A DNA stretch of 64,000 nucleotides from Escherichia phage LYE-01: sequence record PQ303785.1; one strand, written 5' to 3'. The position numbers and the translations under genes are program-made. The notes under the pieces are model-generated. The model saw nothing but the letters and a program-made list of their open reading frames with translations, was not told where the DNA came from and made no database searches. Each line of letters opens with the position of its first letter. The first letter of the stretch is position 1. Shown here piece by piece: positions 23,166 to 28,598 of the stretch.

Positions 23166-23693
23166 ATGAACGCTAAAGATATTTTCAACTTGGTAAATTA
23201 CAACGATGGTAAATTTAAATCTGAAGCACAGAGTAAGTTCTTTAACGACATCTCAATCGGAGGTGAAATCACAGTTGATGGAGGACAAATTTACAAATCC
23301 CGCTGGAATTGGATCGTTATTATCGATGAGATTGGTATTGTAGAAATTTACAAGAATACGAATAAAAATCGTACATTACACTGGTCTCGTGATACTAACG
23401 AACAGTACAAAAAGGATAAAGCATCTAAAATGTCTCGTGTAACTCAAGAAGATATTGAGTTCATCAAGAAAGATATTTTAATGTATGATAACTTAATTGC
23501 TGAAGAGCAAGCTGTTATTGATAAATTTGACGAAATTAAAGCTTCTCGTGAAATTCCTGATTTTATGAAAGAATCAGTAAATGAACGATACTCTCTCATT
23601 TCAGAGCGTATTGAAACTTACAAAAAGCAAAGAGCTGAACGCCAAAATACTCTTCGGAAGTTTGAAGAACGGTTAAAGACGGTACTCGCATAA
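23166..23693 (+). CDS. hypothetical protein
   Basis: 175 aa with charged helical C-terminal half. Confidence 0.5.
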   Translation: MNAKDIFNLVNYNDGKFKSEAQSKFFNDISIGGEITVDGGQIYKSRWNWIVIIDEIGIVEIYKNTNKNRTLHWSRDTNEQYKKDKASKMSRVTQEDIEFIKKDILMYDNLIAEEQAVIDKFDEIKASREIPDFMKESVNERYSLISERIETYKKQRAERQNTLRKFEERLKTVLA

Positions 23694-23747: not shown

Positions 23748-24155
23748 ATGAAACAGTTGATAATTAAAAGATTGAATTTATTGATATGTTGTTTATGTAT
23801 AGTAGTTGCATATGGTTATTACGCAATTAATGATTATATGCACTATAAAGATTATGATGTTACTGTAGTTAATACCATTACAGGAACACAAGGAAAAGGG
23901 TCTAGTTTATCGTTTATTGCCGTATATGAGCTCAAAGACGGTTATAGATTTAGTGAATATATTTCCCCAGAGATGTATTCTTCAATAGAAAAAGGTGATA
24001 ATATTACTGTAAGTTTACGTCCTTTCGACGTAAAACAGACACTGTTTGATAATATTGTTTGGTTCTTTGGAATGGTATTAGTTCAATCTGTGTGCGGTGC
24101 TTATGTAGTCTGTTCAATCATATTCTGTGTATTTAGTAAAATTGAAATTGAGTGA
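23748..24155 (+). CDS. membrane protein
   Basis: ATG at 23748 (track ORF from 23718); hydrophobic segments at both ends; TGGTATAAT -10-like element upstream. Confidence 0.5.
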   Translation: MKQLIIKRLNLLICCLCIVVAYGYYAINDYMHYKDYDVTVVNTITGTQGKGSSLSFIAVYELKDGYRFSEYISPEMYSSIEKGDNITVSLRPFDVKQTLFDNIVWFFGMVLVQSVCGAYVVCSIIFCVFSKIEIE

Positions 24156-24162
24156 GGAAAAT

Positions 24163-25053
24163 ATGTCAGTCGTAATTAATAATGTCAATGCAGTAATTAA
24201 ATCTTTAGTTAATAAAAAAATGATGAATGAATGGACTGTATTTCGTCGTGGAGAGCCAGATAAATTTTTTCATAGATTTAACCCAACTTTGGATTTGAAT
24301 GTTATTGACAGAGATGTTCATGCCGAAATTTTAGATAAGTTTAAAGTTGATATTGGCTTTGGATTAGAAAAACATTTACAGCGAACAAATGGGTCTGGAA
24401 TGAGTTTATCTAATCGCATTATGAAAGCCCTTAATAAAATTGGAGCGTTGTCTCGTATTAATGCGAGTGAAATCCTTCGTAATTATAATAAAGGATATGA
24501 CCTTTATGGTCGACTAATGCCGAAATTATCATTCGATCAAATGATTGCGGATTTGTGGGAAAATCAACGACGATTATTAGCATTAGGCGCTCGATTAGCT
24601 AAAGGTCTAGATAAACAAATGATTTTTAAGACCAATAATACAGAAGACCTTAAATGCTTTAAATTTAGTATTCGCAGAGATGATTATTACATCAGAGCTC
24701 GCTCTACAGATTATGTTAATATGGGGCATCATCTCTGTTTAGCTTTTGAAGTTTTAAAAGAAGCTGGAACATTAGAATATTCATCTGGTGCAAAATGCCC
24801 TATCGGTTCAAGTTGTATTTTAATTTATCGCCCGAATGAATCCAGTTCAACTACATTGCCTACGAAACCTGTGCCAGTTCGTAGTAACGAAAAACATTCT
24901 GAACAAATTGATTATTTTAATAAGCAGATTGAAGAGCTGAATATTTCTATTCAACAATATGACGATGAAATTTTCAGACTATCTGGATTGAGTAGTAAAG
25001 CTAAATCTGAGCGTGAAAAGTTAATTAAAATTGTCGATTTACTTAAATCTTAA
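24163..25053 (+). CDS. hypothetical protein with C-terminal coiled coil (tandem set 1 of 3)
   Basis: 296 aa; Pro-rich linker LPTKPVPV then heptad-rich tail. Confidence 0.5.
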   Translation: MSVVINNVNAVIKSLVNKKMMNEWTVFRRGEPDKFFHRFNPTLDLNVIDRDVHAEILDKFKVDIGFGLEKHLQRTNGSGMSLSNRIMKALNKIGALSRINASEILRNYNKGYDLYGRLMPKLSFDQMIADLWENQRRLLALGARLAKGLDKQMIFKTNNTEDLKCFKFSIRRDDYYIRARSTDYVNMGHHLCLAFEVLKEAGTLEYSSGAKCPIGSSCILIYRPNESSSTTLPTKPVPVRSNEKHSEQIDYFNKQIEELNISIQQYDDEIFRLSGLSSKAKSEREKLIKIVDLLKS

Positions 25054-25061
25054 GGAACACT

Positions 25062-26090
25062 ATGAAAACTCGTTCTCAAATTGAAGATATGGTTCGTAAT
25101 GCCAGCTATACCCGTGATGTTATGACATTTTTGTGTGAAAATAATTTAGACCCTGATAAAGTTAATCGTGTTATTCATCACTTTAAGTATACGAATAGCA
25201 GTGAATGGGTGCGTAATTTTAGTAAAGCAGGGTATATTACACAAATGACGGCTCGTGAGCAGCTCACCGATTTCTGTAAAACTATTGATTATAAAAATCC
25301 TCTATTTGTTCAAGGCGTCGGTCAAAGTAAGGTCGATTTATCATCTGGATTTTTCAATCCAAATCATTATCGTATTGAATGGAGATTTATTGCTCTGTTC
25401 CGTAGACAATTAAAGCAAATTTTATCAACTGCGAGTCGATTAAAAGGTTCTGATATTAACTTAAAGAATCTGAAATTTGATGGTTATACTCTTCAGATGG
25501 AAGTAAGACCATTAAAAGAAAATAATAGAACTGCACGAATTAGCTTTAAACCTAATACAAAAAATTCTCTTTCAATTTGCGAATGCCTTAAATCGCAGTT
25601 AACAGAAGCATTTAAGTATATGGATGTTGTTGCCGCTGTTCAGTCTAAGATTTTACCTCATTTTGAGCGAAATTGGGAACATACAACAACATATGAACTT
25701 GATATGATCGTTTCATTTAAATACGATTTTTTAAGAAAGGACGAAGTCACGCAAGAGAAAAAGCAGGAAGTGCAAGATAACTTAAATTTAAATTTATCCA
25801 ATTACTCATCAAACGATCCTAAATTTTGGATGTATAGTTCAGGTAATAAGGATGCATGGAAATTCAATAAAGTGAATTTTCTTCCTATTGAAAATCCGAG
25901 TCTTAAACCTGTTGAAAAATGGCATGCAGATGCGATTGAGAAGTCTATCAAGGCAGTAGATGATGAACTCGTTAAAGCAACTAATGAAGTGTTAGAAGCT
26001 GAAAAGATGTTAGAAAAAGCTCAAGAAAAAGTCAAAAATCTCACGAAGCAACGTTCTAAACTGAACAGTGCACTAAATGCACTGAACTAG
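25062..26090 (+). CDS. hypothetical protein with C-terminal coiled coil (tandem set 2 of 3)
   Basis: 342 aa; linker LPIENPSLKPVEK then heptad-rich tail. Confidence 0.5.
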   Translation: MKTRSQIEDMVRNASYTRDVMTFLCENNLDPDKVNRVIHHFKYTNSSEWVRNFSKAGYITQMTAREQLTDFCKTIDYKNPLFVQGVGQSKVDLSSGFFNPNHYRIEWRFIALFRRQLKQILSTASRLKGSDINLKNLKFDGYTLQMEVRPLKENNRTARISFKPNTKNSLSICECLKSQLTEAFKYMDVVAAVQSKILPHFERNWEHTTTYELDMIVSFKYDFLRKDEVTQEKKQEVQDNLNLNLSNYSSNDPKFWMYSSGNKDAWKFNKVNFLPIENPSLKPVEKWHADAIEKSIKAVDDELVKATNEVLEAEKMLEKAQEKVKNLTKQRSKLNSALNALN

Positions 26091-26120
26091 TTTACTTTAC
26101 CACAAGGATGTGGTATAATG
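26091..26120 (+). promoter_or_regulatory. T4-type early promoter
   Basis: GTTTAC, 18 nt, TATAAT. Confidence 0.55.
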
Positions 26121-26147
26121 TTCTTACTTTCTACTGAGGAGATTAAT

Positions 26148-27074
26148 ATGACTCGTAAACATTATATTGATTATTTTGACAGTCTTATTACTAAACATCG
26201 TAATTATCAGATCGGGCACAGAGCAATAATCAATAATATTCTTCGTGATTTCCTTCAATATGTTGGCCAGGAAAATCATATCTGTAAAGATACTCAAAAC
26301 GCTTATTCTCATTCGTTAGGCAATTTGCTTGAATGGTTTAAACGTTCTCGTATGTTATCTTCTACTGTAGCTCGCGATAACATTGAAAACTTTATGAAGC
26401 CGAGCTTCATTAAATCTGCGACATCTATAACCGATTTGGTTGAATTTACTATTATTAACGATGTTAAAAAGACCCATTTAGCTGATTGGTTATCTACCAT
26501 TCCTGAAACTAAATTTGCTGATAAATTTGCTTGTCAATTCAATGACCAAGTGAATATGCTTTTTAAGCATGCTCGTAAACTATTTACCGCGGGCGATGAC
26601 CGTACAAATACAGTTCATGTTAAGGACTGGGTTATTGCTGATGAAGTAACACACAAGCCAGGTGGTTCATCAGTATTAATTAATATCCAGGTTCCTTATT
26701 ATTACTCACGTAATCTCGGCACCATGAACGCTAGAGAAATTAATAAGCACAACAAAACTATTCGTTCGTTGTCTTATAAACTCCGCATGATGTTAAAAAT
26801 TATGGACGTAGTAGAAATGTATGACGAAACCGAAGATAATGGTTCAATGTTATACAGTTCACGCATTCTAATTAAACTGAAGAACCCTAATACATATAAG
26901 CCAGTTGTAAAAGAACCTAAAGTAGAAAAGGTTGATAACCTGAGCGAAGAACGCGAATATCTCAATGCTCGTTTGATTGAAGTTGAAGCCCAGATTGCCG
27001 AACACACTAAATTGTTAAAAGCTCTTAATGCAAAAGCAAATGGTTTACGTAATGCTATTGAGGTACTGAAATGA
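26148..27074 (+). CDS. hypothetical protein with C-terminal coiled coil (tandem set 3 of 3)
   Basis: 308 aa from the internal Met of track ORF 26118..27074; linker KPVVKEPKVEK then heptad-rich tail. Confidence 0.5.
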   Translation: MTRKHYIDYFDSLITKHRNYQIGHRAIINNILRDFLQYVGQENHICKDTQNAYSHSLGNLLEWFKRSRMLSSTVARDNIENFMKPSFIKSATSITDLVEFTIINDVKKTHLADWLSTIPETKFADKFACQFNDQVNMLFKHARKLFTAGDDRTNTVHVKDWVIADEVTHKPGGSSVLINIQVPYYYSRNLGTMNAREINKHNKTIRSLSYKLRMMLKIMDVVEMYDETEDNGSMLYSSRILIKLKNPNTYKPVVKEPKVEKVDNLSEEREYLNARLIEVEAQIAEHTKLLKALNAKANGLRNAIEVLK

Positions 27075-27388
27075 AAAAGCGCTTATTAGAAGATATTGCA
27101 GCTTCAAGTAATTCCAGTCTAATTAAAATTATTATGGCTGGTGAAGAAGACGATCTGGAAATGCGTGGAAAGATTCATGGCTGTGACGATCTAGACTTTA
27201 AACCTCCTGCTTGGGATGCCATTATGGTTATGGTTGAACGCCGCGAAAGGGCTTCTAAGAATGTTCCGAACTGCCCAAAATGCGGTACTGAACAGGTCCA
27301 ATTGATTAACTGGCGTAAACCGGAACTTGAATATAAATGCCGTCATTGCAAACACCGATTTGAGAGAGAAGAAAATGACCAAGCGTAA
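27071..27388 (+). CDS. zinc-ribbon protein
   Basis: 105 aa with CPKCG ... CRHCKH. Confidence 0.5.
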
Positions 27389-27617
27389 AGAATATATGGA
27401 GATTGCTGAAAAAGCAGTCCGTGAATTAGCAATAGCTTATTATAATGAACACGGTAAATTTCCTGATAGATATAGCGTTCTTAAATCTGCTTTAACTCGT
27501 TCATATAAAAATATGCTATCAGAAGTAAGTGATATTATATACAAACATAAAGAACAAACGGGCCAAAGTCTTGATTACGACGAGACTTTTAAACAAGTAC
27601 TAGGAATTAAGGAATAA
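27375..27617 (+). CDS. hypothetical protein
   Basis: 80 aa from ATG at 27375. Confidence 0.45.
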
Positions 27618-27618
27618 T

Positions 27619-27882
27619 ATGTTTAAAGTATATGGTTATGATAGCAACATCCATAAATGTGTATATTGTGATAATGCAAAACGTCTTTTGACTGTGAAGA
27701 AACAGCCGTTTGAATTTATCAACATTATGCCGGAAAAAGGTGTTTTTGATGATGAGAAAATCGCTGAGCTTCTGACTAAACTTGGTCGTGATACTCAAAT
27801 TGGACTGACGATGCCACAAGTATTTGCTCCTGACGGAAGTCATATTGGTGGATTTGACCAATTGCGGGAATACTTTAAATGA
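27619..27882 (+). CDS. nrdC: thioredoxin/glutaredoxin NrdC
   Basis: 87 aa with CVYC redox motif; size matches T4 NrdC. Confidence 0.9.
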   Translation: MFKVYGYDSNIHKCVYCDNAKRLLTVKKQPFEFINIMPEKGVFDDEKIAELLTKLGRDTQIGLTMPQVFAPDGSHIGGFDQLREYFK

Positions 27883-28094
27883 TGCTCGAAGGAACTGATT
27901 ATATCCATGACTACCGCGGAAGCGCGGTATATGTGGGTGATGAGGTTGCAGTTTACTATGGGTATGGAACTTTGATGACAGCAAAGGTTATTCAAATTAA
28001 AAATAGCCGCGCTAAACTCGAAGTTTATTATTCTAATGGTGAAAAGTCTATTTCTAAATGGAAATACGGCGATTGTATGGTCAAATTGGGGTAA
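27879..28094 (+). CDS. hypothetical protein
   Basis: 71-aa ORF. Confidence 0.45.
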   Translation: MMLEGTDYIHDYRGSAVYVGDEVAVYYGYGTLMTAKVIQIKNSRAKLEVYYSNGEKSISKWKYGDCMVKLG

Positions 28095-28096
28095 AT

Positions 28097-28267
28097 ATGA
28101 TTTATGATATTAGTGCATCAAGAACTCCGTCAATGGTTACTATTCCTGCTGAAGAACTAGATCGTCTTCAGAAAATTGAAGAACTTCTTTGGGAAATTGA
28201 ATCTGATTTGCCATCAGGATTAGAATCCTGGATTGATTATGAAGAACTTAATAAATTGCGAAATTAA
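28097..28267 (+). CDS. hypothetical small acidic protein
   Basis: 56 aa from ATG at 28097. Confidence 0.4.
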   Translation: MIYDISASRTPSMVTIPAEELDRLQKIEELLWEIESDLPSGLESWIDYEELNKLRN

Positions 28268-28277
28268 GTGGTGACAA

Positions 28278-28598
28278 ATGAATACTGAAAATAAATTAGA
28301 TGTTGATGCAGTTCTGAGCGAAATAATCGAAGACCATGATGCATTTTCTGAAAATTATGATTTCGATTTTTCGGATTATCTTAAACCTATCGAAATAGAA
28401 GACTGGGTGCAAGACGGTAAATGTCAATATCGTCAGTGTGTTTATTTTAGTCCAAAACATAATGTACATGTTTCCGTAAATGAATGCCGTTCAGGTTCTT
28501 ATCATTCTGACTGGTATTATGCAGTTCCTACTGTTGAACTAGTCGAACCTCGAGAACGTGTAGTAACTCAGACAATACGAGAATGGATTACGCTATAA
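28278..28598 (+). CDS. hypothetical protein
   Basis: 106-aa ORF. Confidence 0.5.
   Translation: MNTENKLDVDAVLSEIIEDHDAFSENYDFDFSDYLKPIEIEDWVQDGKCQYRQCVYFSPKHNVHVSVNECRSGSYHSDWYYAVPTVELVEPRERVVTQTIREWITL

Follow-up and report, generated by a model that had tools for sequence, protein, structure and literature searches.

Sequence profiles place the tandem nrdC.6, nrdC.5 and nrdC.3 genes of a T4-like phage in one superfamily of candidate anti-defence proteins

Introduction

NrdC.5 of phage T4 is among the few known phage factors directed against SIR2-type defence, which depletes nicotinamide adenine dinucleotide. A T4 deletion mutant fails on ECOR17 owing to the sirtuin defence Dsr1, and plasmid-borne nrdC.5 restores infection (Srikant, Guegler & Laub, eLife 2022, PMC9391042). 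Dsr1 has a sensor for the major capsid proteins of phages (PMC13581612). In function, NrdC.5 most closely resembles DSAD1 of phage SPbeta (Garb et al. 2022; structures PMC10973363, PMC11087589), which is likewise a phage protein neutralizing a defence-associated sirtuin but inhibits a different system, DSR2, whose trigger is the tail tube protein. We detected no sequence relation between DSAD1 and NrdC.5 in a profile search of 1.84e9 proteins (see below), which gave nothing outside the T4-like family. Here we describe the nrdC.6, nrdC.5 and nrdC.3 genes at positions 24163-27074 of a 64,000-nucleotide (nt) stretch of Escherichia phage LYE-01 (PQ303785.1; this whole stretch is referred to below as the window), one of which is the orthologue of T4 nrdC.5.

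In T4, nrdC.3, nrdC.4 and nrdC.6 are annotated as hypothetical proteins, and only one gene of the set, nrdC.5, has a published role. The genes share with the T-even anti-defence islands (e.g. dmd-tifA-adfA; pin to nrdC.8) the character of early, non-essential, small accessory genes in a hyperplastic region. Unlike most known genes of such islands, which are unrelated singletons, nrdC.3 to nrdC.6 appear to represent one gene expanded to three or four tandem paralogues. Our literature search found no papers on DUF7235, PF23882, PF26897 or PF26899, and no paper treating nrdC.3-6 as one family.

Identity of the three genes

The analyzed region belongs to Tequatrovirus (T4-like phages); several hundred genomes match it, the top match being Escherichia phage 132 with 97% identity. 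An earlier note, made from the nucleotide sequence without database searches, had delineated three adjacent open reading frames (ORFs), and these are present on the plus strand. Their starts (24163, 25062 and 26148) match the N-termini of all orthologues and have GAGG/GGAG sites upstream; longer mechanical ORF starts at 24127 and 26118 lack support. By orthology to the annotated T4 and phage 132 records the ORFs are, in order, nrdC.6, nrdC.5 and nrdC.3, so the comparison with the T4 nrdC.x ORFs suggested in the note was apt. The trio is flanked by nrdC.7 on one side and nrdC.2-nrdC.1-nrdC on the other, and nrdC.6 is separated from nrdC.5 by 8 nt.

NrdC.5 of the window is 94.4% identical to its T4 counterpart, keeps its position, and matches the Pfam family DUF7235 (PF23882) over its full length with 430 bits (E=7e-129; gathering cut-off 30 bits). 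No DUF7235 match to the window NrdC.6 or NrdC.3 was obtained at E<=1. Since the DUF7235 model does not reach these two proteins, we file them in a wider superfamily rather than in DUF7235. They are direct orthologues of T4 NrdC.6 (87.5% identity to the T4 annotation, in which the tail is frameshifted) and NrdC.3 (60.7% identity to T4, 96-97% to phage 132 and P0058). Compared with the T4 set, the window lacks nrdC.4, carries the other nrdC.3 allele (61%) and has a full-length nrdC.6 in place of the frameshifted T4 reference copy. Relative to the anti-Dsr1 protein itself, the second ORF is thus an orthologue, whereas the first and third are remote paralogues of the same architecture with under 21% identity, and their targets need not be Dsr1.

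Homology of the globular parts

Sequence profiles indicate that NrdC.3, NrdC.4, NrdC.5 and NrdC.6 form one superfamily, tail included, in which the whole protein would have been duplicated. The relationship is remote. Globular parts of the paralogues share only 18-24% pairwise identity, and direct BLASTP or hhalign comparisons scored weakly, whether made among the three window proteins or among their shallow family alignments (hhalign E 0.009-0.14), the sole exception among the paralogues being NrdC.3 with NrdC.4 (25% identity over 227 amino acids (aa), BLASTP E about 1e-7; profile hidden Markov model (HMM) E=1e-8). Weak as they are, the hhalign alignments of NrdC.5 with NrdC.6 and with NrdC.3 run collinearly along the globular part and expose two shared motifs, with the consensus ..K.G/R.(L/I)(S/T)...A(R/S)..(L/I)..(F/Y) for motif 1 and F...F......(L/I)L...(A/S)(R/K)L..G.D for motif 2; the alignment of NrdC.6 with NrdC.3 covers the C-terminal third only.

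Combined profiles brought out the relationship more clearly. A profile of NrdC.3 and NrdC.5 scored the held-out NrdC.4 at 43 bits (2.8e-13), against 27 and 10 bits with the single profiles. HMMs of single families gave no link from NrdC.6 to the other paralogues, and NrdC.6 was the top-ranked non-member in every leave-family-out search. We then searched 1.84 billion representative proteins with a merged profile at E<=1e-3. Only 31 matches were returned; these include gene fragments, and 11 are new full-length proteins of 284-354 aa, all of which have both motifs and end in a tail of the common form. It is because this search supplied intermediates that the link of NrdC.6 to the others became visible only after it. 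Three of the 31 matches, P0214, P0219 and a 2706-aa protein, correspond to short stretches only and are probably chance or unrelated. As a side observation, P0214 and P0219 are repetitive, apparently secreted proteins with at least four repeats of the form ..Q(F/L)..(M/I)V(A/T).(G/S)(S/T)RLV(S/T)G.., to which only motif 2 was matched.

The resulting 19 members were linked by phmmer and by iterative searches, with 533 decoys as a control. Transitive phmmer links join NrdC.6 to P0208 (5e-9), P0208 to P0218 (6e-12), P0218 to NrdC.5 (5e-4), NrdC.5 to P0217 (7e-7) and NrdC.3 to NrdC.4 (3e-5), and the network contained one decoy match (E=9e-3). An iterative profile started from NrdC.6 collected all 19 members within three rounds, including NrdC.5 (3e-39), NrdC.4 (9e-12) and NrdC.3 (6e-9), with none of the 533 decoys below E=10. 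In addition, the tail part of the DUF7235 model matches the tails of P0218 (48 bits, 1.3e-12), P0208 (30 bits, 4e-7, at the cut-off), P0216 and P0220, and the same model matches the N-domain of P0209, a relative of NrdC.6 (1e-4).

Structure prediction is in line with these results. The AlphaFold2 model of NrdC.6 has a mean predicted local distance difference test (pLDDT) score of 79 and a predicted template modelling (pTM) score of 0.65, and the order of elements is the same in it and in the low-confidence NrdC.5 model: a helical N-domain, beta-beta-alpha-beta-beta, linker and tail. Together with the alignments, these two models define a shared architecture of motif 1, motif 2, the beta-beta-alpha-beta-beta unit, a variable linker and a terminal heptad helix. 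When the NrdC.6 model was compared with the BFVD database, ten proteins of 304-378 aa were retrieved at E<=1e-3, all from T4-like phages, the hosts being Escherichia/Shigella, Enterobacter, Pectobacterium, Acinetobacter, Klebsiella and Citrobacter; of these, seven are only 10-16% identical to the query, and none could be assigned to nrdC.3, nrdC.4 or nrdC.5. BFVD matches of the NrdC.5 model (Melville, Cronus) were set aside, having a template modelling (TM) score of about 0.2. A fold search of the PDB gave no match beyond helical hairpins, PADLOC and NCBIfam returned nothing meaningful, and no enzyme or known domain was found in the NrdC proteins.

The earlier note had found the N-terminal domains not obviously alike and had envisaged variable effectors on a common module. 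A corresponding scenario is domain shuffling, in which a common C-terminal oligomerization or anchoring module recombined onto unrelated N-terminal effectors. It would fit the low identity of the globular parts, the weakness of the shallow hhalign scores and the three separate Pfam families, and natural chimeras (nrdC.6::nrdC.4 in Manna, nrdC.5::nrdC.3 in P0056; see below) show that a tail can be swapped by deletion. Yet the motifs are collinear and secondary-structure elements come in the same order; the held-out tests, the significant transitive network and the decoy-free iteration link the globular parts themselves, as does the DUF7235 match to the N-domain of P0209; and the chimeras are simple in-frame deletions between adjacent paralogues that gained no foreign domains. 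We therefore consider domain shuffling largely refuted and extremely improbable. Whole-protein duplication is the better account, because the distant members carry both motifs as well as the tail and the paralogues link to one another without decoys. Accordingly, the families that databases keep apart (DUF7235, PF26897 and PF26899; PHROGs 2351, 1435 and 2257) would constitute one superfamily, and paralogy would merge three or four such 'DUF' families of T4-like phages into one.

The C-terminal tail

All three proteins end in an amphipathic helix of 46-61 residues with heptad periodicity that is conserved in orthologues. We analyzed the last 49 residues of each protein by comparing the hydrophobic power at period 3.5 with that of 2000 shuffles. 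The best period is 3.45 in NrdC.6, NrdC.5 and NrdC.3, and its power was reached by 9, 0 and 27 of the 2000 shuffles, respectively. With a cruder score of a/d occupancy the counts were 2, 1 and 13 of 300 shuffles. Across the superfamily, 15 of the 19 tails have a best period of 3.45-3.50, and shuffles seldom match the power. AlphaFold2 predicts helices 246-272 and 278-295 in NrdC.6 (pLDDT about 74-90) and a single helix, 283-341, in NrdC.5 (pLDDT 75-89). A tail profile compared with the PDB gave weak matches, of which Smc (E=3e-4) was followed by the weaker APC, GCN4 fusions and IF1, and no match other than solved coiled coils. If a coiled coil is defined by 3.5-residue hydrophobic periodicity over at least four heptads in a proline-free helix, then the periodicity, the predicted helices and the weak PDB matches together assign the tails to this class, in agreement with the heptad-rich tails described in the earlier note.

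The tail was expected to be conserved among orthologues if it were a genuine module, and this is what we observed. Mean pairwise identity of tail versus N-domain is 74 vs 74% in NrdC.6, 93 vs 92% in NrdC.5 and 84 vs 74% in NrdC.3. Within orthologue groups the tail is nearly without gaps, while the linker is the least conserved segment and has many indels. In P0057, a distant NrdC.5 relative with 38% identity, the tail is nearly unchanged. In the alignment of 19 sequences the last 32 columns are gap-free and end flush with the C-terminus, and distant members share the consensus P-x-x-V-E-x-H-(Y/F)...IE.SI...D.EI..LS...QR.KL..AI..LK. Conservation across paralogues falls on heptad a/d positions and on QR.KL, surface positions being variable. 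The module common to all members is thus real, and the proline-containing strings quoted for the linkers are there as well. Each linker in NrdC.6, NrdC.5 and NrdC.3 has only 3-4 prolines, so 'Pro-containing' describes them better than 'Pro-rich'. The suggestion that the tail serves for anchoring finds no support, because the tails are amphipathic and charged, not hydrophobic.

Another sense of anchoring would be that the conserved tail docks onto one shared host or phage partner instead of binding itself. The tail is the best-conserved segment of the superfamily, with a near-invariant end, ..A(I/L)..L(K/N), and a conserved Arg and a small residue beside a core position are compatible with packing on another helix. 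We give this possibility little credence: the conserved residues cluster at heptad core positions, as they would in a self-associating helix, and the gene neighbourhood points to no partner. The small membrane protein gene nrdC.7 is not always adjacent, being absent between nrdC.8 and nrdC.6 in JS98.

Distribution, gene loss and rearrangement

All identifiable full-length members of the superfamily come from T4-like phages, in which the genes always lie directly upstream of nrdC.2 (nrdC.2-nrdC.1-nrdC) and number one to four: one in Klebsiella phage Marfa and in Enterobacter phage CIP9, three in JS98, four in T4 and in phage 132, and three in the window. Citrobacter Moon-like phages and other Klebsiella phages have one detectable place per genome. 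The region around them is subject to gene gain and loss, and several events can be reconstructed. In T4, phage 132 and most relatives, nrdC.4 (333 aa) is located between nrdC.5 and nrdC.3, but it is absent in the window. The spacer between nrdC.5 and nrdC.3 in the window (26091-26160) is the nrdC.5-nrdC.4 spacer of phage 132, with an early promoter and a stem-loop, and the first codons of the window nrdC.3, ATGACTCGTAA, are the start of phage 132 nrdC.4 joined to the nrdC.3 body. Because both the spacer and these codons belong to nrdC.4, the sequence points to a deletion in which the 5' end of nrdC.4 recombined with the similar 5' end of nrdC.3. Two further rearrangements are in-frame fusions. 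In Salmonella phage Manna (3215-4252, XDJ03583) residues 1-270 of nrdC.6 are followed by the linker and tail of nrdC.4, with loss of nrdC.5, and in P0056 nrdC.5 is fused to nrdC.3 at a common 'VN'.

Compared with window 24892-25053, the T4 reference nrdC.6 (NC_000866, 10067-10894) has a 1-nt deletion, GAGCTG-ATA as opposed to GAGCTGAATA, which frameshifts off the last 37 residues of the tail; the remaining tail is intact in another frame. In a T4 stock of the HIDEN-SEQ study, nrdC.6 is complete (891 nt) and free of the deletion (bioRxiv 10.1101/2025.11.20.689424). Either the reference deletion stems from a sequencing error, or it marks a natural tail-less mutant specific to that strain.

For nrdC.3 there are two deep alleles, 61% identical, with a synonymous divergence (dS) above 1 and a tail much better kept than the rest. 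In some relatives nrdC.3 looks mosaic between the two allele types. Ratios of non-synonymous to synonymous divergence (dN/dS) between close orthologues are 0.04-0.3 in the globular part and about 0-0.4 in the tail; with values this low, these are functional genes under purifying selection. Pairwise dN/dS, the one measure used (no site-level tests), gave no sign of positive selection. The earlier note had spoken of a diversifying family. The family itself is borne out, and its diversification consists of ancient whole-gene tandem duplication and allelic replacement in nrdC.3.

Copy-number variation bears on whether the related tails pair with each other, so that three or four paralogues would be subunits of a single hetero-oligomeric complex. 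The tails are homologous, similar in length and flush with the C-terminus, and the genes are adjacent (nrdC.6 and nrdC.5 only 8 nt apart) and co-expressed early, all of which would suit such a complex. We nevertheless consider it unlikely. Copies vary from one to four, and the missing gene differs: nrdC.4 in the window, nrdC.5 in Manna, nrdC.3 in JS98. The T4 reference sequence has a tail-less nrdC.6; only the a/d core and QR.KL are kept across paralogues, with different surfaces; and plasmid-borne NrdC.5 alone restored infection (PMC9391042), a result to be read with the reservation that other copies may have remained in that phage.

A proposed anti-defence role

The reading that we favour, with a probability of roughly 60%, is that these genes are tandem paralogues of one T4-like-phage superfamily encoding early, non-essential anti-defence proteins that oligomerize through their tails. 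Non-essentiality is documented for T4: transposon mapping found nrdC.3, nrdC.4, nrdC.5 and nrdC.6 all dispensable on K-12 (bioRxiv 10.1101/2025.11.20.689424). As their paralogue nrdC.5 is known to disarm an immune protein, nrdC.6 and nrdC.3 are good anti-defence candidates. Mechanistically, the paralogues may be stoichiometric inhibitors or decoys, each directed against a different immune protein of the host, with target specificity presumably supplied by the diverged globular part. The conserved tail would form a homo-oligomeric coiled coil, by residue rules most likely a parallel dimer: the d positions hold Leu, while the a positions are mostly beta-branched or mixed and include one conserved Arg. 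With a flexible linker, two or more recognition domains could then make contact with an oligomeric target.

Several observations weigh against this interpretation. Experimental support for an anti-defence role comes from NrdC.5 only among the paralogues, and the main text of the HIDEN-SEQ study lists nrdC.1, but none of nrdC.3-6, among new anti-defence factors (bioRxiv 10.1101/2025.11.20.689424). The predicted tail is two helices with a Gly break in NrdC.6 and one long helix in NrdC.5. The direct pairwise link of NrdC.3/NrdC.4 to the rest is weaker than the others (P0218 to NrdC.3, 7e-3) and becomes strong via profiles only. With homologues as close as 85-97% identity, AlphaFold2 gave a poor model of NrdC.5 (pLDDT 50), and the argument for a shared fold therefore draws on sequence and the order of secondary-structure elements instead of a superposition. 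Finally, all 19 members have a basic globular part (net +6 to +16) even though they share less than 20% identity, which could mean nucleic-acid binding.

The last point leads to a further alternative, in which the proteins bind nucleic acids as dimers, for example to regulate early genes or to mask DNA or RNA, and affect Dsr1 indirectly. Besides the uniform basicity, dimerizing coiled coils at the C-terminus are common among DNA-binding proteins, and NrdC.3 aa 33-84 (26244-26399) has a sub-threshold match to the integrase SAM-like/XerD N-terminal DNA-binding domain (E 0.0016-0.056). This match is confined to one of the 19 members. We rejected a tyrosine-recombinase SAM-like domain (PF02899/XerD) in NrdC.3, its 14-18 bits comparing with cut-offs of 22 to 330, and the similarity, which overlaps motif 1, is probably due to chance. 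Such basicity is also seen in about one fifth of the remaining window ORFs that are 150 aa or longer. Moreover, rapid paralogue divergence, dispensability and variable copy number suit host-specific accessory roles better than core regulation. Nucleic-acid binding is thus conceivable but on the unlikely side.

An extension of the anti-defence reading, which we offer tentatively and hold to be less probable than not, is a repertoire of immune antagonists built on one scaffold, in which the oligomerizing tail and linker carry a basic recognition domain that diverges fast. The individual paralogues and alleles (the nrdC.3 types, nrdC.4, nrdC.5, nrdC.6, and the single-copy forms of Klebsiella, Enterobacter, Citrobacter and Acinetobacter phages) might be tuned to different host immune sensors, and gain and loss of copies by recombination might set host range. 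Though dispensable in the laboratory, the genes may determine the clinical strains that are open to infection by a therapeutic T4-like phage. Paralogy to nrdC.5 nominates three more T4 genes, as well as the single-copy relatives just named, as anti-defence candidates with defined domain boundaries. The tail-less T4 reference nrdC.6, the tail-swap chimeras and the phages without individual copies provide natural experiments. The tail-plus-linker architecture is a useful and testable feature, even if the result will not astonish a specialist.

Feature coordinates and the neighbouring genes

Coordinates of the genes, of their parts and of neighbouring genes with published roles are collected in Table 1.

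Table 1. Positions in the window of the three nrdC genes, their domains and neighbouring features
Feature	Coordinates	Strand	Basis or remark
nrdC.6 orthologue (C6), 296 aa	24163..25053	+	PHROG 2257; homologues are Pfam PF26899
nrdC.5 orthologue (C5), 342 aa	25062..26090	+	Pfam DUF7235/PF23882; PHROG 2351
nrdC.3 orthologue (C3), 308 aa, 'window-type' allele	26148..27074	+	PHROG 1435; homologues are Pfam PF26897
Globular part, NrdC.6	24163-24828	+	
Motif 1, NrdC.6 aa 87-113, MKALNKIGALSRINASEILRNYNKGYD	24421..24501	+	aligns with motif 1 of NrdC.5, NrdC.3, NrdC.4 and all distant members
Motif 2, NrdC.6 aa 127-158, ..NQRRLLALGARLAKGLDKQMIFKTN	24541..24636	+	superfamily alignments
Linker, NrdC.6 aa 223-243, predicted disordered	24829..24891	+	pLDDT <50 at 227-243; indel-rich among orthologues
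Predicted coiled-coil tail, NrdC.6 aa 244-296	24892..25050	+	two helices, break at LSGLS
Globular part, NrdC.5	25062-25727	+	
Motif 1, NrdC.5 aa 50-76	25209..25289	+	alignments
Motif 2, NrdC.5 aa 108-139	25383..25478	+	alignments
Linker, NrdC.5 aa 223-281, long, low-complexity, predicted disordered	25728..25904	+	pLDDT 27-42; orthologue indels
Predicted coiled-coil tail, NrdC.5 aa 282-342	25905..26087	+	one predicted 59-aa helix
Early-type promoter, TTTACT + 17-nt spacer + TATAAT, enclosing stem-loop 26098-26115	26091..26119	+	heads the nrdC.3-nrdC transcription unit; marks the missing nrdC.4
Globular part, NrdC.3	26148-26882	+	
Motif 1, NrdC.3 aa 61-87	26328..26408	+	alignments
Motif 2, NrdC.3 aa 126-159	26523..26624	+	alignments
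Linker, NrdC.3 aa 246-262	26883..26933	+	orthologue alignment
Predicted coiled-coil tail, NrdC.3 aa 263-308	26934..27071	+	orthologue alignment, periodicity
nrdC.8 orthologue	23166-23693		bas37_0203 by position and 528-nt length
nrdC.1 orthologue	27375-27617		98.8% identity to T4 NrdC.1
gp49.2 orthologue	28278-28598		95.3% identity to T4 Gp49.2

Pin, encoded at one end of this stretch of the T-even genome, inhibits Lon. For three other neighbours anti-defence roles have been published: bas37_0203, which is the orthologue of nrdC.8, acts against Druantia III, NrdC.1 against Septu (both bioRxiv 10.1101/2025.11.20.689424) and Gp49.2 against OLD (PMC13096335). With such neighbours, the trio sits in what looks like an anti-defence island extending from nrdC.8 to pin. 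We rejected bas37_0203 as a member of the superfamily described here, since it is the 528-nt nrdC.8 orthologue and a neighbour only. Between nrdC and gp49.2 (27879-28267), the window and phage 132 have a 71-aa ORF where T4 has the 102-aa gp49.3; at 18.6% identity the two are unrelated, and the nrdC-gp49.2 interval appears to be another replaceable slot in the island.

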